A stretch of DNA of 64,000 nucleotides from Flavobacteriales bacterium (GCA_025451235.1 JANWKT010000025.1:56201-120200), one strand, 5' to 3'; shown: positions 19,433 to 64,000, counted from the first letter of the stretch. The notes: a model not told the origin generated them from the sequence alone. Numbers and translations: made by a program.

Positions 19433-19546
19433 TTTTTCTGTTTTCATACCAACTTATTGGTAGACAAAATGCCAATCAATGGGTATGGCCTACCTGGTGA
19501 TTAGGTAATATTTTTGAACCATATTCCCATATCAAAACCCCAAAAC

Positions 19547-20437
19547 ATGAATTCAAAACTACCTGCATTTTTCCTCCTCCTTTTTGTTCTGTTTAATTCG
19601 AACAACTTTGGTCAGATCCCGAGCAATGGATTTGAAGACTGGACATCTTTTGGAGCTTATATGCAGCCCACTGGATGGGTAAGTACCAATGAATATGCCA
19701 CAGGTCCTTTTTATGCCATAACGAGGGATACCTCCCACTTTCCTCCCTCGGTAGGCTCTTATTCTATAAGGCTGGAAAATAATTTATCCCTTAGTTTTCC
19801 CTCTGCCGGAGGTGCTTCCAAAACGGGAGATACGTTATTGGGGCAACAGGGTTTTTTTCCTATTACAGGACATCCAACCAGCTTAACAGGCTACTATAAA
19901 TTCAATCCAATGGCGGGTGATACGATGACTATTAGGGTGATCCTTTCTCAAACAGGTTTAGGGGAAGTTGCTACGGCAATATTTCATGCCACAACTGCTG
20001 CGCCTAACTGGACCTCTTTTAGCCTTCCAATTCCCGTCTATGCTAATGCGGACAGTGCAGAAGTTATGTTAGCTGCTTTTAATATAGATACGAATACAAC
20101 ATCGCCTTATCCTCAGGGTAGCTCCGTATTATATGTGGATAATTTAAATTTCGACAATCTTATCACCGGAGTGGAAGAAACCATTAAAAATGCCGAAATA
20201 CTGGTATACCCAAATCCTGCCACGGATCATATTACCATCGATATTCCTGAAAATGATCATCAAATGAAGATAATGGTTTACAATCATTTGGGAGAAGTCC
20301 TTATTGATCATCAAACTTTATCTGGAGAATTTTCCATTCACCTGGATATTTCGTCATTGGCTGAAGGCATTTATTCCGTCTGTTGCATGCACCCTAACCA
20401 TAACATTACAACTAAGCGGATAATTGTGATACGTTAA
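19547..20437 (+). CDS. Secreted protein with T9SS C-terminal sorting domain
   Basis: ATG at 19547 gives 'MNSKLPAFFLLLFVLFNSNNFGQ'. The C-terminus 'LVYPNPATDHITIDIP...LGEVL...LAEGIYSV' is a typical Por_Secre_tail. Confidence 0.75.
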   Translation: MNSKLPAFFLLLFVLFNSNNFGQIPSNGFEDWTSFGAYMQPTGWVSTNEYATGPFYAITRDTSHFPPSVGSYSIRLENNLSLSFPSAGGASKTGDTLLGQQGFFPITGHPTSLTGYYKFNPMAGDTMTIRVILSQTGLGEVATAIFHATTAAPNWTSFSLPIPVYANADSAEVMLAAFNIDTNTTSPYPQGSSVLYVDNLNFDNLITGVEETIKNAEILVYPNPATDHITIDIPENDHQMKIMVYNHLGEVLIDHQTLSGEFSIHLDISSLAEGIYSVCCMHPNHNITTKRIIVIR

Positions 20438-35448: not shown

Positions 35449-36897
35449 ATGTCAATTAAATCCATATTGCCGGTCTTCTTTATTTGCGGAAATTTGCTGG
35501 CACAAACCTATACGCATCCTACCATAGGGCTCAATTCAACCTGGGCTGGCGCCTGTTTGGTGAATACCTGCAGCGGCACCTATTACGACAATGGTGGGGC
35601 CGGTGGAAATTATGCCGCCAATATCAATTCTATTTACCGGACCTTCTGCCCCAATACTGCCGGAACCTGTGTAAGAGCTACTTTCACATCCTGGAGCATG
35701 AATGATACTTATTTCTTATGTTTCGGACCCAATAGCTGTTGTGATTATCTAACTATACATAATGGTGCGGTATTTGGTACCCCAGTATTATATAATAATT
35801 GCACCACCTCTCCAGGAACCGTTACGGCAACCGGACCTAATGGATGTTTAACCTTTAGACATACAACCGACGGCTCTGTTCAACTCGCTGGCTGGGCAGC
35901 CACCCTTTCCTGTGTTGCATGCGCAGGAGGACCTGCAGCCAATACCCGTCATGATTGTCCGGGTGCTATACAAGTATGTACTGATTCTCCCATCTCTTAT
36001 AATTCTACAGGTCCTGGATTAATCTCCGAATCATGCAGTGGATGTTCCAGTGCTGAGGGGGAAATTCATAGCAGTTGGTATGTATTTCAAATGACTACCG
36101 GAGGAACCCTGGGATTAACCATTATTCCAACAGTAGGAACCGACGATTTTGATTTTGTACTATATGGACCCAATACCACCTGCGGTGCTTTAGGCAGTCC
36201 TATACGTTGCAGCTACGCCGGTACTTCTGGCAATACAGGAATGGGTAACGGTGCTGTTGACAACAGTGAGATCGTAACCGGTGATGGTTGGGTAAGTACC
36301 TTAAATGTTACGGCAGGTCAGATCTATCGTTTACAAGTAAATCACTGGAACCCTCCAACATCAGGATATACGTTAGACTGGAACCTTACCGGTGGAGCAT
36401 CCTTGAATTGTACTCCGCTGGCAGTTCAATTAACTGACTTCCGTTGCGAAGAAATTGACAATAGCATATCCGTTTATTGGTCAACCAGTGCAGAGGTAAA
36501 CAGTGATTATTTTATTGTTGAAAAAAGCACCGATGGCGAAAATTTTACCGAATTCACACGGGTACAAGGACAAGGAAACTCAACCGAACAAACTGAATAT
36601 ATAATAACGGATCTGAATGCGGCGTTTGGTGTAAACTATTATAGACTCAAACAGGTGGATCTGGATGGGCATGAAACCGTTTATGACATGACCTCCTGTA
36701 ATTTTGGGAATGTAGAAACCATGATAAAAAAGGTGACCATTTATAATTTAAGTGGTATGGTTGTATATTCATCCAATGAAAATACCACGAGCCTACAGAA
36801 AATTGTATCCCAGGTTCATTTACAGCCGGGTATGTATATTTTAGAAACGATTGACGAAAACGATCAGGTAAAGATCATCAAGTTTGTACAGATCTAA
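35449..36897 (+). CDS. Cys-rich secreted protein with T9SS C-terminal sorting domain
   Basis: Signal peptide, many Cys, and a C-terminal 'YYRLKQVDLDGHETVYD...KVTIYNLSGMVVY...LQPGMYILE' Por_Secre_tail-like region. Confidence 0.75.
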   Translation: MSIKSILPVFFICGNLLAQTYTHPTIGLNSTWAGACLVNTCSGTYYDNGGAGGNYAANINSIYRTFCPNTAGTCVRATFTSWSMNDTYFLCFGPNSCCDYLTIHNGAVFGTPVLYNNCTTSPGTVTATGPNGCLTFRHTTDGSVQLAGWAATLSCVACAGGPAANTRHDCPGAIQVCTDSPISYNSTGPGLISESCSGCSSAEGEIHSSWYVFQMTTGGTLGLTIIPTVGTDDFDFVLYGPNTTCGALGSPIRCSYAGTSGNTGMGNGAVDNSEIVTGDGWVSTLNVTAGQIYRLQVNHWNPPTSGYTLDWNLTGGASLNCTPLAVQLTDFRCEEIDNSISVYWSTSAEVNSDYFIVEKSTDGENFTEFTRVQGQGNSTEQTEYIITDLNAAFGVNYYRLKQVDLDGHETVYDMTSCNFGNVETMIKKVTIYNLSGMVVYSSNENTTSLQKIVSQVHLQPGMYILETIDENDQVKIIKFVQI

Positions 36898-38410: not shown

Positions 38411-39703
38411 ATGATGAAAAAGTTATTCTTTGCATTATCTCTTTCCCTTATTTTAGTTTCGATTCGTAACAGCTGGTCTCAATCCGGTTGTAACTGCCTA
38501 TTGCCAGTTGATACCTCCTTTACATTGGCCATTCCTCCATCCGATGATATGAGCAGTGCAAGGATAGACCTGCCTTTTTCTTTTAATTTCTATGGTCAAA
38601 CCGCCGATAGTGCCTATATAAATAACAATGGAAACATTAGTTTTGGGATCTCCTATGCCGTTTTTAGTTCCAATTTATTTCCAACCAGTCCGGAGAGAAT
38701 AATTGCTCCATTTCACGCCGATGTAGATACCCGGGATACAGCTGGAGGATTAGCTGACCATGGAAAGGTCTATTATAAATTAACACCATCCGCCTTGATT
38801 GTTAAATGGGAAAACGTGGGTTATTACGATCGACAATTTGATAAACTCAATACTTTTCAACTGATCATTACCAATGGATCGGATAGCCTCATACCTAATG
38901 GAAACAATGTAGCTTTTTGCTATGGTGATATGCAATGGACCACCGGAGAAGCATCAGCAGGCACCAATGGATTTGGAGGAATACCGGCAACCGCAGGTAT
39001 TTGCAGGGGAAACGGAGTTGACTACTTTCAACTGGGTACATTTGATCATCCGGATACTGTTTATGATGGCGGATATGTAACCGCTGATGGTATTAACTTT
39101 TTAGACAACCGGAATATTCTAATAAACACTTCTTTGAGCACAGAGATCCCTCCTGTTGCCTTGGATGATTATTGTGATACAACCTTTATTGTCGTCAATC
39201 AAATGGAAGAATTTATAGATTATTTTATGACCCCTGAAATATCCGAAACGAATAGTACAGTTACCATCACTCCTCCCTCTTCAGGATTCAATTTGATCAA
39301 TTCAACCGGTGGCCATTCACCTATGGTGAATTATTCATTTATTGGAACTAGTTTCAATATCGGGCTTAATCATATTGAATTTGATGTGGGTGATGGTGGA
39401 GCCATTGTATCACACTTCGAACGGGTAATCATAGTCATTGATAATACCGGAACAGAAGGGGTTGATCAAGCTCAACATACTTTATATCCAAACCCCAGTA
39501 ACGGATTGGTAACCCTGCAAGTGCCGGCTTCTTTAGTAGGGGAAAAAATGGTGCTCACAGATGCCTTAGGGAAACAAATTCAAACTTCCATTATTCAATC
39601 TCAAACTGAGCAATTTAATTTAACCACATTGGATCGGGGTATTTATTTCATCACCATTCTCAATGGTCAAGGAAACATCACAAAGAAATTACTCAAGCAA
39701 TAA
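38411..39703 (+). CDS. Secreted protein with T9SS C-terminal sorting domain
   Basis: Signal peptide and a C-terminal 'LYPNPSNGLVTLQVP...GEKMVLTDALGKQI...LDRGIYFITI' region. Confidence 0.75.
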   Translation: MMKKLFFALSLSLILVSIRNSWSQSGCNCLLPVDTSFTLAIPPSDDMSSARIDLPFSFNFYGQTADSAYINNNGNISFGISYAVFSSNLFPTSPERIIAPFHADVDTRDTAGGLADHGKVYYKLTPSALIVKWENVGYYDRQFDKLNTFQLIITNGSDSLIPNGNNVAFCYGDMQWTTGEASAGTNGFGGIPATAGICRGNGVDYFQLGTFDHPDTVYDGGYVTADGINFLDNRNILINTSLSTEIPPVALDDYCDTTFIVVNQMEEFIDYFMTPEISETNSTVTITPPSSGFNLINSTGGHSPMVNYSFIGTSFNIGLNHIEFDVGDGGAIVSHFERVIIVIDNTGTEGVDQAQHTLYPNPSNGLVTLQVPASLVGEKMVLTDALGKQIQTSIIQSQTEQFNLTTLDRGIYFITILNGQGNITKKLLKQ

Positions 39704-40501: not shown

Positions 40502-41680
40502 ATGAAAGTGGTTGGTTTAATTCTGTTGATGTGTCTGGGAAACTCCTTGTTTTCCCAATCATGGTCGCAGGTGGTGGATTTTCCTGGCTCCGCCAGGGAT
40601 GATGCTGCTAGTTTTTCTATTGGTGACTATGGTTATGTGGTTACTGGTATGGACCAGGGCTTTAATACCACCGCCAATGGCTATAGATACCATCCATATA
40701 GCTATATCTGGTTCCCGATCGACACCTTACCTGCAGTTCCCCGACAATATAGCTGTGCTTTTACCATCAACAACAAAGCCTACTTGGTAGGTGGGGTAAA
40801 CGGGAGTCAATATTTAAACGATTGCTGGGAATATGATCCTTTGTTAGATAGCTGGACGGAAAAAGACACCCTTCCCTCTTTTGGCAGATCCGCCTGTATA
40901 TGTTTTAGCCTGAATGGAAAGGGATACATAGGAACTGGTGCTACTAATGGGAATACATTAACCGATGAATGGTGGGAATACGACCCTTTAGCTAATTCAT
41001 GGGCGCAAAAGCTTGATTTTCCTGGAGGAGCTAGAAAAGTAGCTACCGGTTTTGCGGTAAATGGTAAAGGATATCTGATCGCGGGAATTGATTCGGCCCT
41101 GCAAATGAAAAAAGATGTTTGGGAATACGATCCTCTCTTGGATACCTGGACCCAGCAAACCGATTTCCCTGGTACGGCTCGTTTTTATGGTGAAGGGATC
41201 TCCATGGCCAATACCGGATATCTGCTCACCGGATGGGATACCACCCAACAATATACCAACGACCTATGGGAATATAATGATGCACTTGATTCATGGACCG
41301 AATTGGATACCATCCCCTCTTTCGGAAGAAAAGGGATCAGTTCATTCACTGTAAACGGCCATTTATTTTTTACTACCGGGATCGACCAGAATGGGGACAG
41401 GCTTATTGAAACATGGGCTTATGGCAGCACAATAGGGATCGATGAGGAAAACGAAGGGTCTATGCATATTTATCCCAATCCATCAGAAGGGGAAATGAAT
41501 TTAACAGCAACAAACGGGCAGTCCATTGATTTAACGATTACCACCTTGTTGGGTAATGTTATATACAAAAACGTGGTGAATGAATATCCGTTCAGGATCA
41601 GTATAGAAACTCCAGGTATCTATTTTCTCGTTTTTATGCTCGATGGTCATGCCCATTCTCAAAAGGTAATTATCTACTAA
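40502..41680 (+). CDS. Kelch-repeat beta-propeller protein with T9SS C-terminal sorting domain
   Basis: Five 'W(E/W)YDPL..SW' Kelch-like repeats and a C-terminal 'IYPNPSEGEMNL...GIYFLVF' region. Confidence 0.75.
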   Translation: MKVVGLILLMCLGNSLFSQSWSQVVDFPGSARDDAASFSIGDYGYVVTGMDQGFNTTANGYRYHPYSYIWFPIDTLPAVPRQYSCAFTINNKAYLVGGVNGSQYLNDCWEYDPLLDSWTEKDTLPSFGRSACICFSLNGKGYIGTGATNGNTLTDEWWEYDPLANSWAQKLDFPGGARKVATGFAVNGKGYLIAGIDSALQMKKDVWEYDPLLDTWTQQTDFPGTARFYGEGISMANTGYLLTGWDTTQQYTNDLWEYNDALDSWTELDTIPSFGRKGISSFTVNGHLFFTTGIDQNGDRLIETWAYGSTIGIDEENEGSMHIYPNPSEGEMNLTATNGQSIDLTITTLLGNVIYKNVVNEYPFRISIETPGIYFLVFMLDGHAHSQKVIIY

Positions 41681-41820: not shown

Positions 41821-43062
41821 ATGAAAAACATCTACTTCTCTGCTCTCCTATGCCTTAGTATCCCTTTAACCCTCCAAGGTCAGAACCTGGCCCCCAATCC
41901 TAATTTTGAGATCTATTCAACCTGTCCTAATTCCGTTGCTCAATTGCAGTATGCAACTGGATGGATGCATGTATCCGGGCATGGCGGATCTGCGGATTAT
42001 ATGAATGTATGTTCTGCAAGTGGATTAGTGGATGTACCCGGCAATGCATTTGGGACCCAAACTCCTGGATCAGGAAATGGTTATGTGGGATTTGCCATGT
42101 ATTATCAAAGCACCCCTGACTTCAGAGAATATATTCAGACCCAATTTACCTCTCCTTTAGTGGCTGGTCAAACGTATACTATCCAATTCAGCGCATCATT
42201 ATCCGATAACTCTACCTTTTCTGCTCCTTGTTTCCAGTTTTATTTTTCAAATGCTGCTCTTACTTGGGGACTGGGTGGATGGGGACCTATTACAACCGTT
42301 ACCCCACAGGTATCTTCAACGGTTCATATTACCAGCAAAACTACCTGGCAAACATTAACTGCAACTTATACCGCCGTAGGTGGAGAACAATTTATGACCA
42401 TGGGTAATTTTAGAAATGATGCTACCACTCCCGGTATTACTCCAGCAGGTGCTGGAGCCTATACTACCGTTTATTACTATATAGATAATTATTCTGTTAC
42501 ACCTGGAGCACCCTTGCCGGTGGATCTCTTGTATTTCAATGGGGAATGCTCTGATCACGGTACTACATTGAGGTGGACCACCGCATCTGAGATCAACAAT
42601 GACTATTTCACCATAGAGTCAAGTACGGATGGAGTAAATTATACCACAGAATTTACGGTTGATGGAGGTGGAAATTCGAACGAAGAAAAAACCTATAGCT
42701 ATACAACTCAGCTCAGGGGAATTCCTGGTATGTATTTCCGTTTAAGCCAAACAGACTACGATGGGAATGTGCATGAGTTTTCGCCCAAATATATTTCATG
42801 TGAAGAATCTTTGTTGGATGATTGCCCGGTTGTATTTGCTAACGAAGACCAGGTAGATATAGAAATATATTCTTCCTCTGGTGAAGAGTTAAATATGACG
42901 CTATTAGATAGCAAAGGGTCCACCCTGCAAACGTTACATACAAATACTGCGGAAGGCCTGAATACCGTTAACATGAATACCGAAGGATTATCTGCGGGCA
43001 TTTATATTGTTGTAATATCAGGAGCCAATCGCCAATGCAGTGCTAAATTCCTGAAGAATTAA
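41821..43062 (+). CDS. Secreted protein with T9SS C-terminal sorting domain
   Basis: Signal peptide and a C-terminal 'VDLLYFNGECSDHGTTLRWTTASEINNDYFTIESSTDG...' target-domain pattern. Confidence 0.75.
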   Translation: MKNIYFSALLCLSIPLTLQGQNLAPNPNFEIYSTCPNSVAQLQYATGWMHVSGHGGSADYMNVCSASGLVDVPGNAFGTQTPGSGNGYVGFAMYYQSTPDFREYIQTQFTSPLVAGQTYTIQFSASLSDNSTFSAPCFQFYFSNAALTWGLGGWGPITTVTPQVSSTVHITSKTTWQTLTATYTAVGGEQFMTMGNFRNDATTPGITPAGAGAYTTVYYYIDNYSVTPGAPLPVDLLYFNGECSDHGTTLRWTTASEINNDYFTIESSTDGVNYTTEFTVDGGGNSNEEKTYSYTTQLRGIPGMYFRLSQTDYDGNVHEFSPKYISCEESLLDDCPVVFANEDQVDIEIYSSSGEELNMTLLDSKGSTLQTLHTNTAEGLNTVNMNTEGLSAGIYIVVISGANRQCSAKFLKN

Positions 43063-50929: not shown

Positions 50930-51042
50930 GGGGAGTATCTCTCCACCTAAGGTAAAGTCAACGCTTCAGCCGGCGGGGCGCCAGCTTTGCTCCCTGGCAG
51001 GTAGGTTTCCTGCTTTACGTTTTGTCTTTTAAAAAGCAAAAG

Positions 51043-51993
51043 ATGGAACTGCATGAGAATGTTCTTATCTTTACAAGAATGGGCATCCTTTATATTATAC
51101 TACTATGCATTGGAGGATTCGTCCTTCTTTTTATTGCCTTTAGGTATTTATCGAAGTTCCAGGACAAATACATGGGCAGTTCCCTTGAAAACGCCGAAGT
51201 ATATAAGAACGAGCTGGTAGTAATGAGCCATATTTACCATAGCGGAGGAGATACCGGTGATGCGTTTGAACATACACGGATCGTGCATATAGACATTCTC
51301 ACTGGAAAATACCTGCAAAGGACCGTGATGAACACTGAACTGAAGCTGGAAGAGAAAGTGGACCCGCTGCTGGTTTTAAGGGCTGCCAATATGTACTATG
51401 TATACGACATGTCCATTAGGAAAAAGGTATTTGATTATGGTATTTTATATGCGTATGATGCCAGGGCAAATGCAGAAAAACTATCGAAGATCACCTATAA
51501 CAACCGCAATTTTTCCATAGTTACATTGAAAGGAACTCAATTATCCATTCCTCTCGAAAAATTGGCCTCCATCAACGGTCATGCAAAGGAAGATGATCAA
51601 AGCACCGGGAATTTGTTTTCATTTAAAAAAGATGAAAACAATGAAGTCTATTACCTGGAATATGAAAACTCCAGAACCCCTGCCCTATCCACTTATATCC
51701 ATCCGGAAAAAATTTCGGAGCTGAATAACCAGGTGGTCTTTTTATTCCACGATACCCTCGATGAATACTCAACCATATTCCTGGCCAAGGCAGATACCTC
51801 AGGTAATTTATTGTGGAAGCTGAGCAATCCTGATTTGGGTTTGAAACATAGAATGGAATATGATCAAAAGATCGAATTGAAGTATCATTATATCTATCAG
51901 TATGTATTGGTAATGGTTTTTGATGCTAAAAGAGATATTACCGCTGGCATTGATTTGAATACCGGAAAAATTATTTGGAAACATAAAGTATAG
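51043..51993 (+). CDS. Hypothetical membrane-anchored protein
   Basis: ATG at 51043 (MELHEN...) then a TM 'MGILYIILLCIGGFVLLFIAF'. The ORF-track start at 51022 is a TTG. Confidence 0.5.
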   Translation: MELHENVLIFTRMGILYIILLCIGGFVLLFIAFRYLSKFQDKYMGSSLENAEVYKNELVVMSHIYHSGGDTGDAFEHTRIVHIDILTGKYLQRTVMNTELKLEEKVDPLLVLRAANMYYVYDMSIRKKVFDYGILYAYDARANAEKLSKITYNNRNFSIVTLKGTQLSIPLEKLASINGHAKEDDQSTGNLFSFKKDENNEVYYLEYENSRTPALSTYIHPEKISELNNQVVFLFHDTLDEYSTIFLAKADTSGNLLWKLSNPDLGLKHRMEYDQKIELKYHYIYQYVLVMVFDAKRDITAGIDLNTGKIIWKHKV

Positions 51994-53798: not shown

Positions 53799-56114
53799 TT
53801 ACCAAACCACCAGTTTTAGATAATTAGTTTTAGCACCCATTGAACTCGTTTCTACTATATAAGTTCCTGGTGCAAAATGGTTTACTGGTACGTTGAAATC
53901 ACCTGAATGTGTATTTATATCTGTGTATAGTTTCATTCCCAGACAATCGTAAATATTAAGTAGGGTAATTGATATACCATCAGGAATGTGCACATTGAAA
54001 AAGGAACTGCACGGATTGGGCCATACCTCAATGTTGTATTGTTGAAATTCATTGATCCCGGTGAAAGAAAAGGGATAACAGATAGAAGTATCAACACACA
54101 TACCATGATCAACGATAACCGCAAAGTTTCCGTTCGATGAAGGATAATATATATAGTTGGTTTCTCCCGGTATTGCCACCCATCCAGAGTCACATGAATA
54201 CCATTGGTAGTTATATTGCGAATGATCTGTAGCATGTATTCCACTCACCACATTTGTTATCGTTGCAGCAAAAGGTTGAACATATAAGTGGGTTACAATA
54301 TCACTATCACAACCAAAAACATTCGTGAAATTACTGGTATGATTTACTGTTGAACTTCCAACAGAACCATCCGGGAAAATAAAACTCATTCCTGAACAAA
54401 TGGTATCATAAGAGTGAATCGTTGCTCCCGGTAGAACAATAACTGTAACTTCGGTACATGGACCACCACTCATACATCCTCCCTGACCTCTAACAGAGAC
54501 GGTTTGGGTGAATGTTAATGGAGGTGTTGTATAGCTAGAACCTGTATGAAAATTGTTATTTCCACACCATGAAGCCCAACCCCAAAACGTGGCACTATTT
54601 AGTGAACCGGAAACTATATTATAAGTTACAGAAGTTCCATAGCAAACAGTATCATCCGTAACAGTAATAATTGGAGCTGTAGATGCATTGCACGGCCCGT
54701 ATTTTAACGTATATCCGCCATTACTTGTTGGAGGATTGGGCAGGGTATGGACACTGGTTGTTGGGTCAACGTCAGGAGTACCGCCATAGAAACCTACTGC
54801 AAAAACCTGATCATCATCATTCGTAAATAACTTGTCCGTATAGAATCCTGAAAAACTTCCATCAGCAAAAACCGAGCTAAGAAAGGTTCCGGCAGTATCA
54901 AATTTGGCAAATATGGTTTTATTGGTCGGATCAAGATCTGCCCCTGATGCAAATACATGTCCGGAAGAATTCACTACAACATCAATTTGAGTAAATCCAT
55001 CCCACAGATCATCATCCACATTGGCCCATTCAAATTCAAGATCAGTATTCAGCTTTGATATAAACCATCCAACAATATCCGGACTTGTAAGAAAATAAGT
55101 AGAATCTCCAGGATCAAAATCAACTGTCCCTTGAAAGTTGCCTGCTACGTAAATATTTCCATCCAGATCAACATCCACTCCATGACCTGAATCATGTGTG
55201 GATCCTCCCACTCTAACTGCGTTGTTATATGAACCTGTTAAAGCATTGTATATAGCAATATAGCACTCATGTCCGCCCAAAGAACTAAGCATATTGCTAA
55301 CCAACTGAGAAGGATTAAAATCCACCGATCCACAAAATCTACCGGTAACAATTACAGAAGTATCATTTAGGATCGCCAAGGAACTGGTATTTTCCTGACA
55401 TGCTGCTGACCCACCTATTTCATTCGCCCATCGGAAATTGCCGGAGCTATCGTAGCTAGCTAAAAACCCATCATCGTATAAATTGGTATGCATAAAAAAG
55501 GTATCCTGAGGAAGAGGTGATGGATCGAAATCCGGAATTCCCTGAAATGATCCGGTGATATAAATATTAAAATTAGTGTCTGATTTAATATCCGTTGCCT
55601 TTTTATTCACTCCACCCTTGATCTCTTTTACCCATTCAAAATTGCCTCCGTTATCATATTTTGAAATGTAGATAGCACTGTAAGGCGAATTATTCAAGAT
55701 GTAGGTTCCGGCTGATGGATCAAAATCGGAAGGCCCAACATGGTCACCCAGAACATAGAGATTGCCTTCATTATCTAAATGTATATGAGTATCTCCATCA
55801 ATATTTGTGATGATAAGTTGTTTGGCCCAGGTGAAATTAAACAAACTATCGTATTTGGCAAAATAGATATCTTCGCCTGATACAGAAGTTAAATTGAAAA
55901 TAGAAGGTCCTGGATCAAAATCAAATGTACCATTCAATATACCCACTACATATACATTTCCCGTATCATCCACCTGCACACCGGTGGCTGTCATCCCCAC
56001 ATTCATTGAATTATCATAGGTTTGACCAAAAAGAAAAACCTCTGAATTGTAAATAAATAACCAAACGATACAGATTAACTTGAATATGTGATTAAATCTA
56101 AAAAATCGCTTCAT
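53799..56114 (-). CDS. Large secreted beta-propeller (SBBP-like repeat) protein with T9SS C-terminal sorting domain
   Basis: Signal peptide, repeated 'G..DFDPG/S' beta-propeller blocks, and a C-terminal 'VWPNPCSSFFNVHIP...LGMKLY...GTYIVE' region; 771 aa. Confidence 0.75.
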   Translation of the reverse strand: MKRFFRFNHIFKLICIVWLFIYNSEVFLFGQTYDNSMNVGMTATGVQVDDTGNVYVVGILNGTFDFDPGPSIFNLTSVSGEDIYFAKYDSLFNFTWAKQLIITNIDGDTHIHLDNEGNLYVLGDHVGPSDFDPSAGTYILNNSPYSAIYISKYDNGGNFEWVKEIKGGVNKKATDIKSDTNFNIYITGSFQGIPDFDPSPLPQDTFFMHTNLYDDGFLASYDSSGNFRWANEIGGSAACQENTSSLAILNDTSVIVTGRFCGSVDFNPSQLVSNMLSSLGGHECYIAIYNALTGSYNNAVRVGGSTHDSGHGVDVDLDGNIYVAGNFQGTVDFDPGDSTYFLTSPDIVGWFISKLNTDLEFEWANVDDDLWDGFTQIDVVVNSSGHVFASGADLDPTNKTIFAKFDTAGTFLSSVFADGSFSGFYTDKLFTNDDDQVFAVGFYGGTPDVDPTTSVHTLPNPPTSNGGYTLKYGPCNASTAPIITVTDDTVCYGTSVTYNIVSGSLNSATFWGWASWCGNNNFHTGSSYTTPPLTFTQTVSVRGQGGCMSGGPCTEVTVIVLPGATIHSYDTICSGMSFIFPDGSVGSSTVNHTSNFTNVFGCDSDIVTHLYVQPFAATITNVVSGIHATDHSQYNYQWYSCDSGWVAIPGETNYIYYPSSNGNFAVIVDHGMCVDTSICYPFSFTGINEFQQYNIEVWPNPCSSFFNVHIPDGISITLLNIYDCLGMKLYTDINTHSGDFNVPVNHFAPGTYIVETSSMGAKTNYLKLVVW

Positions 56115-56195: not shown

Positions 56196-56912
56196 TTAGT
56201 TGCTGTTATTAATTTCACTAATGATTAATTTTTTACTCAATATCCATTGATCTTTAGGAATACAAGGATGTTCCTTGTACCAAGAGAACCATTCCTCCTG
56301 AAGGGGCAATAGCGAATTCTTGTCTAAATATATTACATGTCTATGCTTTGAAGGACCAGGCTTAGAATGAGGATAGTAATCGGACATTTCGAATTTATAG
56401 CACTTGTAGTTATGTCCAAGTACAACAAGAGTTGTATCACCAGTATTAGTAATCGGCGCTTTAATATCAGAAGACAATTCGGCCTTATTGAATAATGTTT
56501 CCCCGTTTACTGTATTGAGGTTAAATATTGAATCTAAGCTATTCAGGTAACTCTCCGCACCATAAATTGTGTCACCTTTGTTAAGAGGAAATTGAGCCAT
56601 ATTAACCCAACCAATAAATCTTGGATCAATGTACATCATGTTTATCCTACGATTTTTACTGTTTATATCAAATCTTGTGGGCAAAAAACGGTACATTCTA
56701 AGATAGTTATCTAGAGAATCAATAATTTCAAAATAGCTTTTGAATTTGACTAAAATTCTTTGAGACTTAAATTCAACACAACTGTCCAGATTAACAGATT
56801 TATAGTAATCGTATTTGTTATATATGATTTGTCCAGTAAACCCTATACTCAATTTCTGGCAAAATAAATTGCCTGCCTGAAGAATAAGAATTATGATTAT
56901 AAGCTTTCTCAA
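56196..56912 (-). CDS. Hypothetical secreted protein
   Basis: Signal 'MRKLIIIILILQAGNLFCQ'; 238 aa. Confidence 0.5.
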   Translation of the reverse strand: MRKLIIIILILQAGNLFCQKLSIGFTGQIIYNKYDYYKSVNLDSCVEFKSQRILVKFKSYFEIIDSLDNYLRMYRFLPTRFDINSKNRRINMMYIDPRFIGWVNMAQFPLNKGDTIYGAESYLNSLDSIFNLNTVNGETLFNKAELSSDIKAPITNTGDTTLVVLGHNYKCYKFEMSDYYPHSKPGPSKHRHVIYLDKNSLLPLQEEWFSWYKEHPCIPKDQWILSKKLIISEINNSN

Positions 56913-57395
56913 TAGAATAATTGCAACTAACTACCGGATTGTCCAACCTTTTCCATTTTCAAATGACAACAAATGAAATTACCTTTTGTAAATAAATAAG
57001 ATCTATAGCCCGTATAGTAAATATAAAGATAAATGCTTGTTTGGTTAACCCTACCTAGTATTATATAGGTATCGCCACCTGTCACCCCAAGGGGTGACAA
57101 TACCCCAACTTGGGCCGGCCAAGCCTACCCGACCACAAGGAGGTGCTGGGAACCATAAAAAATAATATATAATAAGGTAGCTTGTAACAATATAGAAGGA
57201 TCATTCGTCTTAGTTTTACCTCTCCTCTCAATCATTAAAAAAGGGTTAAATATTTGCTTTTTGAGAAAAAGGATGTATTTTTGAAACTCAATCGTTAAAC
57301 AACCGTAAAAGGATACTAAAATTTAACTCGCCTATCGAAAGACGCATACTCTAAATCTCTTATTCAAATTGTAAATCTTACAAATCTTAGAGTGT

Positions 57396-57983
57396 ATGCG
57401 GTACGAACAAATGGATGACCAAAAACTGGTAACTGCCTATATCGGCGGCAAAGAATACTGTTTTGAAGTATTACTTACCAGACACAAAGCCAAAGTCTAC
57501 AGCTATATATACCAAATGGTGAAAGACCAGGTAATTAGCGAAGACATTTTCCAGGATACCTTTATTAAGGTTATTCGCACCTTAAAATCAGGCAAATACA
57601 CCGAAGAGGGTAAGTTTTTGCCTTGGGTAATGCGTATTGCCCATAACCTGATCATCGATCATTTCCGTAAGGCTAAGAAAATGCCTATGTACGACAGTCC
57701 TAATGAAGACTTCGACATTTTCAAGCTGATCCGCATACCCGACACCAATGCGGAGGACAGGATGATGAAAGAACAGGCCTACCGCAACATTAACCGCCTG
57801 ATTGAAAAGCTCCCTAAAGAACAGAAAGAGGTTCTATATATGAGGCATTTTGCCGATATGAGCTTTAATGAAATTGCTGAGCAGACCAATGTAAGCATTA
57901 ATACAGCCCTTGGCCGTATGCGCTATGCCTTGATAAACCTCAGAAAACTGATTGAAAAGCACCAGTTGGAACTAGTGGACTAG
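57396..57983 (+). CDS. ECF-type RNA polymerase sigma-70 factor
   Basis: Region 2 'SEDIFQDTFIKV' and 'WVMRIAHNLIIDHFRK', and region 4 'EQKEVLYMRHFADMSFNEIAEQTNVSINTALGRMRYAL'; 195 aa. Confidence 0.85.
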   Translation: MRYEQMDDQKLVTAYIGGKEYCFEVLLTRHKAKVYSYIYQMVKDQVISEDIFQDTFIKVIRTLKSGKYTEEGKFLPWVMRIAHNLIIDHFRKAKKMPMYDSPNEDFDIFKLIRIPDTNAEDRMMKEQAYRNINRLIEKLPKEQKEVLYMRHFADMSFNEIAEQTNVSINTALGRMRYALINLRKLIEKHQLELVD

Positions 57984-58005
57984 TTCCCCCGATTGATATA
58001 TTCAT

Positions 58006-58046
58006 AAGACAGAAAGGCCGGGTTATTCCGGCCTTTCGTGTCTTAT
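58006..58046 (+). other. Long hairpin downstream of the sigma-factor gene (no T-run)
   Basis: agacagaaaggccgg-gttatt-ccggcctttcgtgtct, about 15-bp stem. Confidence 0.45.
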
Positions 58047-58191
58047 GGTCCTTACAGCCCGGCTGCTAGCTTCAGCTAGTTTATAGCCTCTAAAATGGTG
58101 TTCAATAAAAATATTTGCGCTTTTGTATAATAATGTACTTTAGTATGCGTTTTTGATTAAAATTAAAACCACGAAAAACTAAAGTTTGCCT

Positions 58192-58356
58192 ATGATGCAT
58201 ACATTTACTCCAACTACAACCCGAGATAACGAAAGAACAGACCTTAAAATTAAACTGCCAAGCCAGTTCTCATTAAAAGTAATTATGGGATACTCTGCAG
58301 CTTTAAAGGTGATCCGTTTAAAAAATCTTGGAGAAACCGAACTATTCATGAATTGA
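58192..58356 (+). CDS. Candidate small ORF (54 aa), not in the supplied ORF track (below its length cut-off)
   Basis: ATG-ATG start and uninterrupted frame to the TGA at 58354 (MMHTFTPTTTRDNERTDLKIKLPSQFSLKVIMGYSAALKVIRLKNLGETELFMN). The intrinsic terminator below follows 22 bp later. Confidence 0.3.
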   Translation: MMHTFTPTTTRDNERTDLKIKLPSQFSLKVIMGYSAALKVIRLKNLGETELFMN

Positions 58357-58378
58357 TACGTAAGGTTTTTAAAATTAT

Positions 58379-58414
58379 GGCCCCCTGGTTTCAACATCAG
58401 GGGGCTTTTTTTTT
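58379..58414 (+). terminator. Strong rho-independent terminator on + strand
   Basis: ggccccctg-gtttcaacat-cagggggc (8-bp GC stem) followed by 9 T. Confidence 0.8.
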
Positions 58415-58460
58415 GTAGGTTTGTCCTTCAACAAGCTCCAGATAACAAACTTATCTTGGG

Positions 58461-59933
58461 ATGTTGCCACCAATGCTTAAAAGCAAAGAAATAAAAGGGC
58501 TGATTATTTGCGTGCTGGCATTAGTGCTGGTGAGCTGGTCGAAATTGGTCTTTACCGGCAGCATGAAAGTAGACAACAACCCGGTAAGCACCTGGCAGGG
58601 CTTGTCCATATTTCTTATTTTCGGTGTATCCCTTTTTATCTATGGCCGGATCTATTATAAACTCTATAAAAACGCCGGACAACTTACCATTAGCCATTTT
58701 CAAATAAAAAAGTGGGGGTATATCCATATTGTGCTGGCCAGCCTCATGCTTCCTATTTTATCGAACGATATTTTTCTATACATGGCTTATGGCGATTTGA
58801 GCAATATGGGACATGATGTTTTTAGAGAACAGGATATCATGGTCCATAGCAAATGGGCCTATCTGGTAGGTAACTGGAAAGATTCGCCCTATCTATATGG
58901 CCCCCTTACGCTTTGGATCGGGAAGATCGCCAATTGGATAGGGGGCAACAATGTATACATCGTACTTTTCGTATTTAAACTCATTTGGGCTTTGATCGCC
59001 ATCTGCTTTTTAGAGATCATGAGTCTTACCGTAAAACATTTGGGGGATTTTATATTGGTCCTATTTACTCCTGTGTTCTGGCTCCAAAATATTGGCGGAC
59101 TCCATTACGACCTGGTGGCCGGCTTCTTTTTGCTGATCGCCGTTTATTTTATTTCACAACAAAAAATAGTCTTCTCGCTAGTAGCCATTGCCATTGCTTG
59201 CATGTGCAAAATCGTATTCCTGATCTTTGTTCCATTTATTTTACTCCATTATTTCTTTATCAATCCGAACAGGATCACCTGGAAACCCATGGTCTATTTT
59301 ATCATGGGCATTGCCATATCAGCGATCCTGGTTGGCTTAAGTTATTTGCCCTTTTGGAAAGGAATGGAAACCATTAGCGTTCCACTCAAATATTTAAATA
59401 CCCAGGAACCTTCCAAATCGTTCTCAGAAGTATTGGGTGAACTACTGAACCTGGTATTTGCAGATGCGGCTCCAAAAGATGAATTGGCAAATACAATAGA
59501 TAGCACCAGCAAGATCTGGTGGTGGAAACAATGCAGGATCGCATTCAATATTTTAGGGATCATTTTAGCAGTGATCGTCTCCATCGTTTTCATGGTAAAA
59601 ACAAAATTTGTTTTTTATAAGACAGTTCTGGCCGAATACTGGATCAAAATATGCCTGGTATTTTTCTTCTTCTACAGCCATATCTTTAATGCCTGGTACC
59701 TCATCGCCCTGCTTCCATTTATTCCCTTCCTGGGGCATAATGAAAGACTCAAAAAATATATCATTGTGGTTTCTGTTTTCTCCAACTTACATATGATCCT
59801 GTTAAACATTGGACGTGATTCATTTGTTTATTATTTATTACCTCCCATCGTGTTCATCAATATTTGCCTGTTCCTTTGGCAATTCAGGAAGAATTTTTTA
59901 ACCGTTGAATCTAATACAGGTCAAGACCTATAA
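58461..59933 (+). CDS. Polytopic membrane protein, putative GT-C-fold glycosyltransferase-like (paralog A)
   Basis: 490 aa with 12 or more hydrophobic helices. Conserved first-loop Asp motifs 'LPILSNDIFLYMAYGDLSNMGHDVF'. C-terminus 'WQFRKNFLTVE'. Confidence 0.7.
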   Translation: MLPPMLKSKEIKGLIICVLALVLVSWSKLVFTGSMKVDNNPVSTWQGLSIFLIFGVSLFIYGRIYYKLYKNAGQLTISHFQIKKWGYIHIVLASLMLPILSNDIFLYMAYGDLSNMGHDVFREQDIMVHSKWAYLVGNWKDSPYLYGPLTLWIGKIANWIGGNNVYIVLFVFKLIWALIAICFLEIMSLTVKHLGDFILVLFTPVFWLQNIGGLHYDLVAGFFLLIAVYFISQQKIVFSLVAIAIACMCKIVFLIFVPFILLHYFFINPNRITWKPMVYFIMGIAISAILVGLSYLPFWKGMETISVPLKYLNTQEPSKSFSEVLGELLNLVFADAAPKDELANTIDSTSKIWWWKQCRIAFNILGIILAVIVSIVFMVKTKFVFYKTVLAEYWIKICLVFFFFYSHIFNAWYLIALLPFIPFLGHNERLKKYIIVVSVFSNLHMILLNIGRDSFVYYLLPPIVFINICLFLWQFRKNFLTVESNTGQDL

Positions 59934-59934
59934 G

Positions 59935-61410
59935 ATGAACAACCTGGATCAACCTACCAAAACCCCCTGGATCTTCTTGCTGGCAAGTATTGCATCGCTA
60001 TGTGGCATAAGCTGGCTGAAATATGGTCTCACAGGAAATATCCGGGTAGACCATAATCCTTTTCCTGCTGCATGGAGCTATCCGATTTTTGTTTTGTTTG
60101 TTGGATCATTGGCATTGTTCGCTTACAATTATTGGAAGATCATATGGAAAACAGAAAGTAAGAAAACCAATTATAAAAAAGAAGCCTATGGGATCATTAT
60201 CCTGGCCTCCTGTATGCTCCCTTTCTTATCGAATGACGTGATCATCTATTTAGGTCATGGTTACCTAAGTAACCATGGAGTGGATGTATTTGCCAATACC
60301 GATATATTAAAAAACTCTGCCTGGGCACCCTATATTGAAGATTGGAAGGATGGTCCTTTTGTTTACGGTCCGATCAACTTGATCCCCGCCAAATTAGCCA
60401 ACCTAGTAGGTGGTGAAAGCATATGGTTTACCTTGATCACCTATAAGATATTGATGCTATTGGTGGGGTTTGGGATCGTTGAATTATTGCATAAGATCGT
60501 AAGAGACCCTAAAGATCTGCTGATAGCTGTTCTGGCACCTGCCTTCTGGCTCCACAATGTGGGACATTTACACAATGACCTCATCGCTTGTTTGCTGGCC
60601 TTAACTTCAGTTTTCTTTATCCTGAAAAACCAGCTATTGCCTTCGGCGGTGTTTATAGGGATCGCCTTATCGTGTAAGGTATCGGTGATCATTTATGTAC
60701 CATTTATATTTAGCCTCTACTTTTTTACCTCCGAAGAAAAAATGGTCCAGAGATTTGGTAAAATGTTCCTATCTCTACTTCTATTGGCCATCACCGTTAT
60801 CGGCTGTTATGCTATTTTTTACGACGGGGGAGCCAGCATCACCGTTCCATTCAATTACCTGTCGAACCAACAACCATCGAAATCATTTGCAGAAATATTG
60901 GGTGAAATGCTGAATGTTATTTTTAGTGGTATCAATCAAGCCAATATTGAATCCGAACTTTCCATGGAAACCATTCCCACCACAGATCCCAAAATATATT
61001 GGTGGGGAATTTCAAAAACCATTTTCAATATGATTGGCATCCTGTTATTTATCGTTACCGGACTTATATTCGCCATTAAAACAAAGATGAAATTTAACAA
61101 AGAACTTACGATTGAATTTTTTATCAAAATCTCTTTTATTTTCTTTTTCATCTACTTACATATTTTCCAGGCATGGTACCTGGTTTTATTAATTCCGCTG
61201 ATCATGATCAGCCAGAACAACCGGCTTAAAAAATATTTCATGGTCCTTTGCTGTTATTCAGGCATTCATACCATTATTATCACCATTGCACGACCTTCTG
61301 CCTTGTACTATATATTGCCATTGCTGGTAATGATCAATGCCGGATTGTTTGTTTGGCAGTTCAGGAAAAATTATTTGACCGTTGAATATAAACCAGAAAA
61401 TAACGGATGA
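59935..61410 (+). CDS. Polytopic membrane protein, paralog B of 58461..59933
   Basis: ATG 1 bp after the paralog A stop. Collinear similarity throughout ('LPFLSNDVIIYLGHGYLSNHGVDVF' ... 'WQFRKNYLTVE'). Confidence 0.7.
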   Translation: MNNLDQPTKTPWIFLLASIASLCGISWLKYGLTGNIRVDHNPFPAAWSYPIFVLFVGSLALFAYNYWKIIWKTESKKTNYKKEAYGIIILASCMLPFLSNDVIIYLGHGYLSNHGVDVFANTDILKNSAWAPYIEDWKDGPFVYGPINLIPAKLANLVGGESIWFTLITYKILMLLVGFGIVELLHKIVRDPKDLLIAVLAPAFWLHNVGHLHNDLIACLLALTSVFFILKNQLLPSAVFIGIALSCKVSVIIYVPFIFSLYFFTSEEKMVQRFGKMFLSLLLLAITVIGCYAIFYDGGASITVPFNYLSNQQPSKSFAEILGEMLNVIFSGINQANIESELSMETIPTTDPKIYWWGISKTIFNMIGILLFIVTGLIFAIKTKMKFNKELTIEFFIKISFIFFFIYLHIFQAWYLVLLIPLIMISQNNRLKKYFMVLCCYSGIHTIIITIARPSALYYILPLLVMINAGLFVWQFRKNYLTVEYKPENNG

Positions 61411-62912
61411 GCTTCAACTCCAAACCATATACATATACAGGTTTGTTATTATTTCTGGTAGCAGCAATCATGTCGGCAGGTTTTCTGCATCCGGACGAAC
61501 ATTTTCAGATACTTGAATTTGCCAATTATAAATTGGGGGGAACAGGTTCCCAGAACCTCACCTGGGAATACCAGGAGCAAATGCGTCCCACTTTTCAGGT
61601 ATGGATTGCTTATTCTCTCTGTAAATACATGAAGTTCTTCCATTGTTTCAATCCTTTTATTGCCGCCATGGTCCTGCGATTAATTACTGGTTTGCTCATG
61701 TGGCTGGTATTGGAACAATTTGCCCAACGATTTAAATCGGAATTGAAAACAAACAGTGGAAGTAAATGGTTCATAGTTCTCTTATTTCTTACCTGGTTCA
61801 TTCCCTTTATCGCTGTGAGGTTTTCATCAGAAGTATTTTCGACCATCGGGTTTACCGCTGCTTTGCTGATCTATTTCAGGAAAAAATCGAGCCGGAAAAC
61901 AACCTTAGGTTATGCACTCGTAGGATTTATGATGGCCCTTGCATTTATCGTCCGTTACCAAGCTGGATTCATGATCTTCGGTCTGGTTGCATGGATGCTT
62001 TTTATCAAAAAAGAAAAGCTGGCAACCTTGCTTAAAATATTTTCCGGGTTTATGATAGGCGTGGGCATTGGCATACTAAGCGACCATTGGTTCTATGGTG
62101 AATGGACTTCTACAGCCTACAATTATTTTTTCCAGAACCTCATCGCTAACAAAGCCTCGGAATTTGGAACTTCGCCCGTTTGGTATTATGCATTACAAAC
62201 GCCCCTGCTCGTATTCCCGCTATTCGGACTGGTGATCATTCCCTGTATCATTATTTTTTGTATTCAGAACCCACGTCATTCGTTTGTTTGGATCATGGTT
62301 CCATTCTTGCTGGTACACCATATCATTGGACATAAGGAATTACGTTTTATGATCCCGATGATCCCCTTTGTGATATTTGCTATCGTGGCAACGATGGAGA
62401 AAATTACATGGATCAGGAAAATGAAATGGGCCCTATACCCATTCTTAGTGATCAACTGTTTAGCACTCATCATTCGTACGATATTACCGGCGGATGACCA
62501 GAATGGATTGTACAGGGCAATTTATAAAAACTATAGAAACCATTGGATCGTGTACGCCGACAAGGATAAATATAACCTGTTGATCAATGATGAACCGAAT
62601 AAAACACATAGAGATCTTAATCAAGAGTTTTACATGCCTCCTACTTTCCTGAAACAGAAATACACCACTGAGGAGGACCTTGATATTATTCTTTTTCACC
62701 GGAACCAAGCAACTATCATTATTTCACGCAAACAACACTATGAAACTCATTTAAAGGCTCATCTTGAAAAATTGGATCTTCAGCCAAAAGTGGTTTTTGA
62801 AACATATCATCATCACCTGGAATTCATGAACTTCAATGAATGGATGTATAATGAAAATATGGGCTGGTGGGTTTTAATTGCGGTAGATTATCAACATAAA
62901 TCTCAATTGTAA
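61407..62912 (+). CDS. GT-C membrane glycosyltransferase with GT22 (ALG9/PIG-B-like mannosyltransferase) signature
   Basis: N-terminal 'FLHPDEHFQILEFANY' matches the HPDEHFQ..E motif of the Glyco_transf_22 family. 501 aa and polytopic. ATGA overlap with the upstream gene. Confidence 0.7.
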   Translation: MSFNSKPYTYTGLLLFLVAAIMSAGFLHPDEHFQILEFANYKLGGTGSQNLTWEYQEQMRPTFQVWIAYSLCKYMKFFHCFNPFIAAMVLRLITGLLMWLVLEQFAQRFKSELKTNSGSKWFIVLLFLTWFIPFIAVRFSSEVFSTIGFTAALLIYFRKKSSRKTTLGYALVGFMMALAFIVRYQAGFMIFGLVAWMLFIKKEKLATLLKIFSGFMIGVGIGILSDHWFYGEWTSTAYNYFFQNLIANKASEFGTSPVWYYALQTPLLVFPLFGLVIIPCIIIFCIQNPRHSFVWIMVPFLLVHHIIGHKELRFMIPMIPFVIFAIVATMEKITWIRKMKWALYPFLVINCLALIIRTILPADDQNGLYRAIYKNYRNHWIVYADKDKYNLLINDEPNKTHRDLNQEFYMPPTFLKQKYTTEEDLDIILFHRNQATIIISRKQHYETHLKAHLEKLDLQPKVVFETYHHHLEFMNFNEWMYNENMGWWVLIAVDYQHKSQL

Positions 62913-62944
62913 AAACTCAATTATATTTGCACCTGATAAAATAA

Positions 62945-64000
62945 ATGAACAGCAGAATATTATTAGGCATATTGATCATCATTCATATTTTCCTGGCTTT
63001 TTTTAAGCTGGGGCATACGCCTATGTGGGATGATGAAGCCTCGGTAGTATGGTTTGCCAAGAATTACAATAAATATGACAAAGTAGTAGGGTATGATGGT
63101 ACCAACCTTTTCTCCTACAGAAATGGGAGTTTGATCAACAATGAATTGGAATACAACAACCCTCCCCTGGATATCATCTATACTTCCTATGTGATTAAAT
63201 ATTTTGGAGACGATGATGTTACGGTAAGGGCATCCTACGTGATCCTGGGTATCATTGCTTTATTTATTTATCTGCTTTGTTTAAAGCTGATCACAAAAGG
63301 GGATACCAAATGGTTTACCTATACGGCCATCATATTGATCCTGTCCATCAGCTATATTATGGCGGAACGAAATGCCAGGTACTATTCGCTTAATTTTTTA
63401 TTTGGAGCCCTCAGCCTCTTTGCTACCCTCAAGATCACTACGGCCACCAGCAGACTAAAGGAAGTCTTGTGGCTCTTTGCCCAGGTGATTTTTATTTATA
63501 TTTTATTTATCAGTCATTACCTGGACGGTATTTGCTGGTGGGCCATGTGTGGATTTATTCTTTTACTGTACGGAAAACTCAAATTCAGCTTTAAACATTC
63601 ACTCAATTATGTAACCATTATTTTATACAGTATTTTATTGGTTGTTATCTATTCATATATAATGGACCACCGGGTATTCAATCGACCCGACCTGGTGAAT
63701 TCCGACAGTACCTTCCAGAAATACTTCAAATTGACCGGCTGGTTCTTTAATGACCTTAACAGGGCCAATATAGTTCCTTTATGGTCCGTTTTGTTTCTTA
63801 TATTTTTATTCTTCCGAAGAAAAAAAATACTTTCTCCGGATTTTAAAAAGATGGCTTACGCAACCATACTTTTCCTCTCATTGATCTATATGCTAAATCC
63901 CCAAAATACTTCTCAATCCTCCTGCTATGAGATCCGTTATCTATATATCATTTTTCCCATTTTATACCTTTACGCTGGTTATTTATTAAAACTTGTGCAT
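62945..64000 (+). CDS. PMT_2/ArnT-like (GT39/GT83-type) polytopic glycosyltransferase, 3'-truncated by window end
   Basis: ATG at 62945. The frame is open for 352 codons to the window end. The first loop 'LGHTPMWDDEASVVWFA' resembles the DE-motif loop of polyprenyl-phosphate-sugar-dependent GT-C enzymes. Confidence 0.65.
   Translation, partial: MNSRILLGILIIIHIFLAFFKLGHTPMWDDEASVVWFAKNYNKYDKVVGYDGTNLFSYRNGSLINNELEYNNPPLDIIYTSYVIKYFGDDDVTVRASYVILGIIALFIYLLCLKLITKGDTKWFTYTAIILILSISYIMAERNARYYSLNFLFGALSLFATLKITTATSRLKEVLWLFAQVIFIYILFISHYLDGICWWAMCGFILLLYGKLKFSFKHSLNYVTIILYSILLVVIYSYIMDHRVFNRPDLVNSDSTFQKYFKLTGWFFNDLNRANIVPLWSVLFLIFLFFRRKKILSPDFKKMAYATILFLSLIYMLNPQNTSQSSCYEIRYLYIIFPILYLYAGYLLKLVH

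Follow-up and report, generated by a model that had tools for sequence, protein, structure and literature searches.

What do four consecutive genes for large membrane proteins make, if they work together at all, and are they controlled by the sigma factor gene that lies ahead of them? The question is raised by one end of a 64,000-nucleotide (nt) stretch of DNA from Flavobacteriales bacterium (GCA_025451235.1 JANWKT010000025.1:56201-120200), called the window below, in which a gene for an extracytoplasmic function (ECF) sigma factor is followed by the genes that we name A, B, C and D. A preliminary description had read them as an envelope glycosylation or mannosylation module under ECF control. 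Our analysis identifies all four products as membrane glycosyltransferases of the GT-C type, and a comparison with related loci reveals an ordered A-B pair as the constant unit of the cluster. On balance we favor a reading in which A to D build a periplasmic glycan from a polyprenyl-phosphate sugar, with A and B forming the core of the pathway and C and D providing accessory decoration; control by the ECF sigma factor is without positive support in the sequence.

The open reading frames (ORFs) of the sigma factor and of A to D lie where they had first been placed (Table 1). Genes A and B are separated by a single nucleotide and B overlaps C by the four nucleotides of an ATGA, and these three genes are probably translationally coupled. 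The tight spacing described for the whole row holds for A to C but not between C and D, which are 32 nt apart with a promoter-type box in the gap. No convincing internal terminator was seen within the cluster. The GT-C identity of the four proteins is borne out by family hidden Markov models (HMMs), the paralogy of A and B and the fold of D. In each protein, invariant acidic residues (D103 in A, D101 in B, D30/E31 in both C and D) follow a transmembrane helix and open a long acidic loop that is poor in lysine and arginine. The distribution of charge fits an outside location of these motif loops, as judged from local loop charge alone, the crude hydropathy count that accompanied it having missed helices and left the global orientation unfixed. 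By position, rather than by superposition, the acidic residues would be equivalent to the proposed catalytic D136 of MptB and to the catalytic D58 of PimE and E35 of ALG12 (PMC13223929).

The description of A and B as tandem paralogues is confirmed by their 39% identity, their shared family and a common motif, LSND..Y..G..SN.G.DVF, which is invariant in both (three genomes; 24 homologues) and corresponds in A to L100-S-N-D103...G111..S114-N..G117.DVF. The conserved start of gene A is probably M5, at 58473. The motif had been assigned to the first loop of the protein; its conservation stands, but in both paralogues it follows the third hydrophobic helix, behind a loop rich in lysine and arginine, and opens an acidic loop of ~60 residues. 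This loop is nevertheless the first of the canonical GT-C module, placed behind a two-helix N-terminal extension. The family PF26314 (MptA_B_family) is present in the precomputed Pfam annotations of A (P0121) and of homologues of both A and B; our local Pfam search returned no PF26314 match and nothing for A, and for B gave weak matches to ALG3 (2.4e-4) and GT87 (2.2e-3). In NCBIfam, TIGR03459 (alpha-1,6-mannopyranosyltransferase A) matches both A and B at 1.3e-11 (44.1 bits, cut-off 439.4), and the MptB model NF038066 matches B at 1.3e-8 (33.8 bits, cut-off 40). As these scores fall under the cut-offs, A and B are best seen as family-level members of MptA/MptB and not as equivalogs. The PF26314 annotation and the MptA/MptB matches keep the pair within the GT-C class, from which such searches might have removed it. 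A PDB search with the A and B sequences alone gave no matches, and profile comparison by hhalign found no detectable relationship between the A/B family and the GT22 family (probability 0.7%).

Gene C encodes a bona fide GT22 enzyme, as its HPDEHFQ motif had suggested. Its match to Pfam PF03901 (Glyco_transf_22) covers residues 14-373 and, at 132.9 bits (E 2.4e-38), lies well above the gathering score of 23.8. The motif occupies residues 28-34, after the first transmembrane helix, and 26 homologues all retain its D30, E31, H32 and Q34. A profile of these homologues matches the PDB sequences of chicken ALG12 (5.5e-11) and human ALG9 (2.5e-9); a PDB search with the sequence of C alone found no matches. 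The view of GT22 as a mainly eukaryotic family holds for characterized enzymes but not for the family overall, since one search returned 142 bacterial homologues at E<=1e-10. To our knowledge the characterized GT22 enzymes all use dolichyl-phosphate-mannose (Dol-P-Man), and we know of no bacterial member that has been characterized. A genome-contig scan with C returned distant GT22 homologues only (27-39% identity), none of which has A, B, D or sigma genes as neighbors; in distant Bacteroidota (Dyadobacter, Saprospiraceae, Taibaiella and metagenome-assembled genomes of Flavobacteriales) the GT22 gene is solitary, and in Dyadobacter and Saprospiraceae its neighbors are uninformative.

The window ends within gene D, and its full-length product was taken from a protein collection (P0138, 540 aa), which puts the expected end of the gene near 64567. 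Its WDDEA motif spans residues 28-32, with W28, D30 and E31 invariant in 50 relatives. D itself has no Pfam or NCBIfam match at threshold. An exhaustive HMMER search for D found 706 cluster representatives, and 31 of the 50 sampled relatives match PMT_2 (PF13231; best 1.6e-13); the family profile also matches the ArnT structure 5ezm at 9.9e-7. An AlphaFold2 (AF2) model of D (pLDDT 94, pTM 0.93) carries a soluble C-terminal alpha/beta domain of ~160 aa (residues ~380-540), and the top 32 Foldseek matches of this model are all GT-C proteins, led by ArnT, ALG12, ALG9, STT3 and Pmt4. ArnT comes first (E 7e-7, TM-score ~0.5, ~11% identity), with ALG12 and ALG9 scoring similarly, and in hhalign the families of D and GT22 are related at a probability of 95.6% (E 1.1e-8). 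The assignment of D as PMT_2/ArnT-like, proposed at first from the WDDEA loop, is thus supported by transitive HMM evidence and by the modelled fold. ArnT draws its sugar from undecaprenyl-phosphate-4-amino-4-deoxy-L-arabinose and PMT enzymes draw theirs from Dol-P-Man. Named homologues of D come from Chitinophagaceae, including Rurimicrobium arvi, which makes a member of the Chitinophagales the most likely source of the window.

Table 1. Positions of the genes and signals discussed in the text, counted from the first nucleotide of the window.
Feature	Position	Strand	Remarks
LPG_synthase_TM protein	4-795	+	PF03706, 4.6e-37; cut by window start; 57 kb from cluster
Protein with T9SS C-terminal sorting domain (Por_Secre_tail)	19514-20437		
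Protein with T9SS C-terminal sorting domain (Por_Secre_tail)	38411-39703		
Protein with T9SS C-terminal sorting domain (Por_Secre_tail)	40502-41680		
Protein with T9SS C-terminal sorting domain (Por_Secre_tail)	53799-56114		
TATTTTTG box	57276-57283	+	TTTG preceding at N19; 113 nt upstream of sigma gene
Sigma gene	57396-57983	+	ECF-type, sigma-70 family; 195 aa
G+C-rich hairpin	58012-58037	+	directly after sigma stop; terminator-like, weak T tail
54-aa ORF	58192-58356	+	conserved; same length in 8 loci, coding substitution pattern
Intrinsic terminator	58379-58414	+	closes 54-aa ORF unit; 11-bp stem, 7 G-C pairs, T9 tail
TAGGTTTG box	58416-58423	+	exact TAnnTTTG; 38 nt upstream of A
Gene A	58461-59933	+	490 aa; MptA/MptB-family GT-C glycosyltransferase
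Gene B	59935 (ATG)-61410	+	491 aa; paralogue of A
Gene C	61407-62912	+	501 aa; GT22 (ALG9/ALG12/PIG-B-like) GT-C glycosyltransferase
TATATTTG box	62922-62929	+	16 nt upstream of D
Gene D	62945-64000	+	PMT_2/ArnT-like GT-C; cut by window end

About ten related metagenomic loci, obtained from homologue look-ups, form our comparison set; a scan of metagenome contigs with the A/B alignment yielded 3 loci only. Gene A precedes B in every locus, at 50-75% (A) and 51-68% (B) identity to the window. In L014-16/L021, where A is 75% identical, the order is sigma, 54-aa ORF, A, B, two GT22 genes and a convergent PLDc_2 gene, and L026 (A 64%) repeats this order and shares with the window the upstream genes gyrA and ClpC. 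L017 (A 57%) has sigma, a small ORF, A, B, a methyltransferase, D on the opposite strand, GT22 and PLDc_2; L022 (A 69%) has A, B, a C-like gene and an inverted D; L019 (A 58%) has A, B, a methyltransferase, a 262-aa protein, an inverted D, GT22, a 532-aa protein, a GT87-like gene and PLDc_2; and L025 (A 53%) has sigma, a small ORF, A, B and GT22. In L020/L024 (A 50%, B 51%) the pair lies between priA and a convergent cold-shock gene, with no sigma, GT22 or D gene nearby. Seven of the eight lineages examined (among them L014/L021, L017, L019, L022, L025 and L026) have a GT22 gene behind A-B, and D is absent from L014 and L026, which keep A-B and GT22. The constant unit is the ordered A-B pair, and the other GT-C genes form a variable set between B and PLDc_2. 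Four GT-C genes in a row, as first described, do recur as a cluster in relatives but do not represent a fixed module, given that everything beyond A-B varies in number, family and orientation.

Some details of the variable island can be added. The methyltransferase of the relatives is an S-adenosylmethionine-dependent Methyltransf_23 protein, and the GT87-like protein is encoded at L019 19532-20953. The other stretches of the island concerned here are L019 13793-14581 (+), L019 17866-19464 (-) and L017 8646-9407 (-). The 262-aa and 532-aa proteins of L019 have no family matches; the latter may be a further unrecognized GT-C protein.

What the analysis shows are folds, family relationships, motifs and the conservation of gene order; from these we infer a model of which sugar is used, from which donor and on which acceptor, and of the sequence in which the enzymes act. 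The families to which the four proteins belong all work with polyprenyl-phosphate sugars on the extracytoplasmic side. A to D would transfer sugars carried on a polyprenyl phosphate, most probably polyprenyl-phosphate-mannose, to a glycan that is being extended at the periplasmic face of the inner membrane. A and B, the ancient and always paired core, would initiate a mannan-type backbone and lengthen it, on the pattern of MptB and MptA, which are polyprenyl-phosphate-mannose-dependent alpha-1,6-mannosyltransferases (PMC2440535, PMC13223929). C, as a GT22 enzyme, and D, with its periplasmic C-terminal domain, would be accessory and add branch, cap or priming sugars. Relatives exchange these accessories for another GT22 enzyme, a GT87-like or D-type protein or a methyltransferase, and the product would therefore be a conserved backbone with a decoration that varies between lineages. 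A, B and C would be read from a housekeeping-type TAnnTTTG promoter just behind the terminator, and D probably has an additional promoter. As the acceptor we favor a glycolipid over a protein.

The system closest to this model in its logic is the synthesis of the lipomannan/lipoarabinomannan core in Corynebacteriales, with MptB and MptA and the branching enzymes MptC/MptD (PMC2440535, PMC3123699, PMC13223929). Common to both are two GT-C paralogues of the MptA/MptB family together with further GT-C enzymes, a conserved Asp that opens the first canonical external loop, a donor synthase encoded elsewhere and, as a prediction, the use of polyprenyl-phosphate sugars at the outer face of the cytoplasmic membrane. 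The host here is a Gram-negative, Chitinophagaceae-like member of the Bacteroidota and not one of the Actinomycetota; A and B, at ~490 aa, are shorter than the 553-position MptB model and score under the equivalog cut-offs; the two paralogues are adjacent and apparently coupled; and the accessory enzymes belong to GT22 and the ArnT/PMT_2-like group instead of GT87 (MptC/MptD). Priming genes of the PimA/PimB type are not nearby, and a phosphatidylinositol-mannoside acceptor is not known in this group. In the literature searched, neither MptA/B-like nor GT22 enzymes have been described in Bacteroidetes.

Several observations weigh against our model. The preliminary description had noted that the window holds no cytoplasmic nucleotide-sugar glycosyltransferase or flippase; among the window ORFs of at least 150 aa we find no GT2-type sugar-activating transferase or flippase, and the flanks of the related loci also hold no polyprenyl-phosphate-mannose synthase (GT2) or flippase, so that donor and sugar are not tied to the locus. 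A and B lie far under the NCBIfam equivalog cut-offs, which means that an MptA/B-like specificity is extrapolated across ~12-25% identity, and the sugars used by PMT_2/ArnT-type enzymes are diverse. The literature searched reports no mannan or lipomannan-like polymer from Chitinophagaceae. D is inverted in L017, L019 and L022, and this, together with the lone A-B pair of L020/L024, indicates that the four genes need not share one pathway.

The last point leads to the alternative that these are four functionally independent envelope-modifying GT-C enzymes, with D acting for example on lipid A or its core, that have been gathered in a variable island. It fits the differences in gene content after A-B and the change of strand of D, the solitary GT22 homologues of Dyadobacter, Saprospiraceae and other Bacteroidota, and the promoter-like box that D has of its own. 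We nevertheless regard it as quite unlikely: A, B and C appear to be translationally coupled, the GT22 gene recurs after A-B as counted above, and the genes found repeatedly between B and PLDc_2 are only those for GT-C proteins and a methyltransferase, a content typical of one glycan locus with variable decoration.

The nature of D bears on the acceptor. If D acted as a PMT-like enzyme that places the first mannose on periplasmic or secreted proteins, and A, B and C extended the resulting O-glycan, the locus would serve protein O-mannosylation. The PMT_2 matches of the D relatives, the presence of Pmt4 and Pmt1/2 among the structural matches of D and a DE-containing first loop like that of PMTs are in keeping with such a role, and the window encodes several proteins secreted by the type IX secretion system (T9SS) that could be substrates. 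The best matches of D, however, are to ArnT, ALG12 and ALG9 and not to PMT; D has no MIR domains of the kind seen in eukaryotic PMTs, and its C-terminal alpha/beta domain differs. D is missing from L014 and L026 although these retain A-B and GT22, and hence cannot be an obligatory initiating enzyme. The characterized MptA and MptB, moreover, act on lipid-anchored acceptors (PMC2440535, PMC13223929). Taken together, this makes O-mannosylation quite unlikely, and we return to the glycolipid acceptor of our model.

A more specific form of that model is that Chitinophagaceae-type Bacteroidota make a lipid-anchored mannan, similar to lipomannan or to glycosylphosphatidylinositol (GPI), through an MptB/MptA-like pair with GT22 and ArnT-like decoration. 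We put this forward tentatively and consider it doubtful. Candidate anchors would be, for example, phosphatidylinositol or an inositol or mannose sphingophospholipid; some Bacteroidetes make inositol lipids (PMC9246714), and a glycan anchored on phosphatidylinositol or a sphingolipid is therefore possible, if unproven.

Comparison of the two accessory enzymes with their best-known relatives delimits what they might do. C shares PF03901 over 360 residues with the eukaryotic GT22 enzymes ALG9, ALG12, PIG-B and PIG-Z (structures 9s6s/9s6u, 9s6t), and, judged by position, the catalytic Glu of ALG12 would have its counterpart in the HPDE motif of C. Unlike these enzymes C is bacterial and would use a bacterial polyprenol in place of dolichol, and its acceptor cannot be an N-glycan precursor or GPI as in eukaryotes. 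D is built like ArnT (GT83) and PMT_2 proteins: a GT-C membrane module at the N terminus, whose first loop bears an acidic DDE motif, is followed by a periplasmic domain at the C terminus. The distance to ArnT remains large, as given above, and profile comparison puts D equally close to GT22.

Is the cluster controlled by the sigma factor that precedes it? Family matches confirm that the sigma factor is truly of the ECF type, as it carries regions 2 and 4 and no others (Pfam Sigma70_r2 1.5e-16 and r4_2 4.5e-11; TIGR02937 1.3e-28), and its sequence matches in PDB are AlgU/SigH, SigW and RpoE. If it were a dedicated regulator of the four GT-C genes, these would constitute a glycosylation module induced by envelope stress. 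The resemblance to the envelope-stress factors AlgU, SigW and RpoE is in line with such a role, as is the order sigma, 54-aa gene, A, B, which is kept in the window, L014-16/L021, L017, L019, L022, L023, L025 and L026 and survives even where the identity of A has fallen to 53%. We consider this regulation unlikely, for reasons that come from the spacer, the promoters and the synteny of the locus.

The sigma gene and A are separated by a spacer of 477 nt, in which a hairpin and a strong terminator (58012-58037 and 58379-58414; Table 1) enclose an independent small gene. The spacer had been described as a terminator-closed leader; the terminator is there, and terminators of differing sequence occupy the equivalent place in L014, L017 and L019, but the supposed leader is the gene of a conserved 54-aa protein. 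This ORF shows 74-91% amino acid identity at equal length in eight loci, its variable columns fall on codon positions 1/2/3 as 24/10/40, and the other frames hold multiple stops. A riboswitch or leader reading of the spacer was rejected in view of this coding pattern and of Rfam scores that were sub-threshold and driven by the terminator (PyrG leader, 32 bits against 65). The protein reads MMHTFTP...ERTDLKIKLPSQFSLKVIMGYSAALKV...N, has no Cys and is always encoded after the ECF sigma gene; a highly conserved promoter-like stretch lies upstream of its ORF (58110-58150). It may act with or on the sigma factor in an unconventional way, as a partner or an anti-sigma factor, and this would speak for a dedicated regulatory unit. 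A co-transcribed membrane anti-sigma factor was not found: the gene next to sigma is that of the 54-aa protein, which lies behind the hairpin, has no transmembrane segment and matches no Pfam or NCBIfam family. The sigma gene and the 54-aa gene would thus form separate conserved transcription units whose link to the cluster is one of synteny only. In L014-16 the spacer between terminator and A is ~300 nt longer than in the window and consists of several short G+C-rich hairpins (L014 5230-5510), among them GACTCCTTCGGAGTC and GACCTCGGAGAGGTC, which have the look of inserted repeats.

The promoter boxes also argue against a dedicated regulator. TAnnTTTG is the -7 element of the housekeeping sigma factor of Bacteroidota. 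Of the 48 window ORFs, 16 have it in the 120 nt ahead of them, where ~3 would be expected from the density of the motif, and it therefore behaves as a real promoter signal in the window. Often it lies just 5-25 nt before the start codon, and it overlaps the mechanically called starts at 8642, 19509, 24261 and 43155; this placement suggests very short or absent 5' untranslated regions (UTRs) and some mis-called starts. An exact copy precedes A in all five loci compared (the window, L014, L017, L019 and L020), within surroundings that are not conserved, and the TAGGTTTG box is a putative housekeeping-type promoter of the GT-C genes. The TATATTTG box is a possible separate promoter for D. No ECF-type promoter (AAC...CGT) is recognizable upstream of A, and inspection by eye, which was not exhaustive, revealed no ECF-like motif shared by the sigma gene and A. 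The promoter of the sigma gene itself is a canonical housekeeping TTTG-N19-TATTTTTG and not an obvious autoregulated ECF promoter. Some 150 nt upstream of this gene, comprising the box and a 5'UTR of ~110 nt with a small hairpin, are nearly invariant in L014 and L019 and may constitute a conserved regulatory 5'UTR; the region matches no Rfam family.

Synteny points the same way. The adjacency of sigma and A is part of a wider gyrA-ClpC synteny and for this reason carries little functional weight, and in L020/L024 the A-B pair stands after priA without a sigma gene. The sigma factor, moreover, is 90-96% identical across loci in which A is only 53-75% identical, which suggests a broader core role for it. 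The ECF control proposed at the outset is accordingly left unsupported, because the boxes are of the housekeeping type, because sigma-less A-B pairs exist and because the neighborhood of sigma and A belongs to a larger conserved block.

The component families of the locus are already catalogued in Pfam; what is new is their combination, the host phylum and the architecture of a backbone with variable decoration. If our model is right, common soil and freshwater Bacteroidota make an undescribed, mannose-rich envelope glycan that is assembled in the periplasm, by types of enzyme for which nearly all other work has been done on mycobacteria (MptA/B) and on the endoplasmic reticulum of eukaryotes (ALG9, ALG12, PIG-B). 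They would then offer a tractable bacterial model for GT22 enzymes and a natural comparison set in which one backbone is combined with swapped decorating enzymes, and would put to the test whether lipomannan-like polymers exist outside Actinomycetota. Should the lipid-anchored mannan also prove real, the locus would represent the first lipoglycan machinery of actinobacterial type in a Gram-negative phylum, would place a bacterial GT22 enzyme in a functional setting for the first time, and would bear on the descent of the ALG and PIG mannosyltransferases of eukaryotes from bacterial enzymes. At present its value is that of a well-defined, testable lead and not of a discovery, the function being entirely a matter of inference and the regulatory link unsupported.

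The remainder of the window adds some context. The ORFs at 35449-36897, 41821-43062, 51022-51993 and 56196-56912 (482, 413, 323 and 238 aa) have no Pfam match at E<=1e-5, and the related loci lack an equivalent of the last of these, which lies a short way ahead of the sigma gene. The protein at the opposite end of the window belongs to LPG_synthase_TM, a family that often adjoins polyprenyl-phosphate glycosyltransferases. SBBP and Ig_7 domains occur in one of the four Por_Secre_tail proteins (Table 1), a NIDO domain in another and Kelch repeats in a third, and the presence of these four proteins identifies the host as a T9SS-bearing member of the Bacteroidota.

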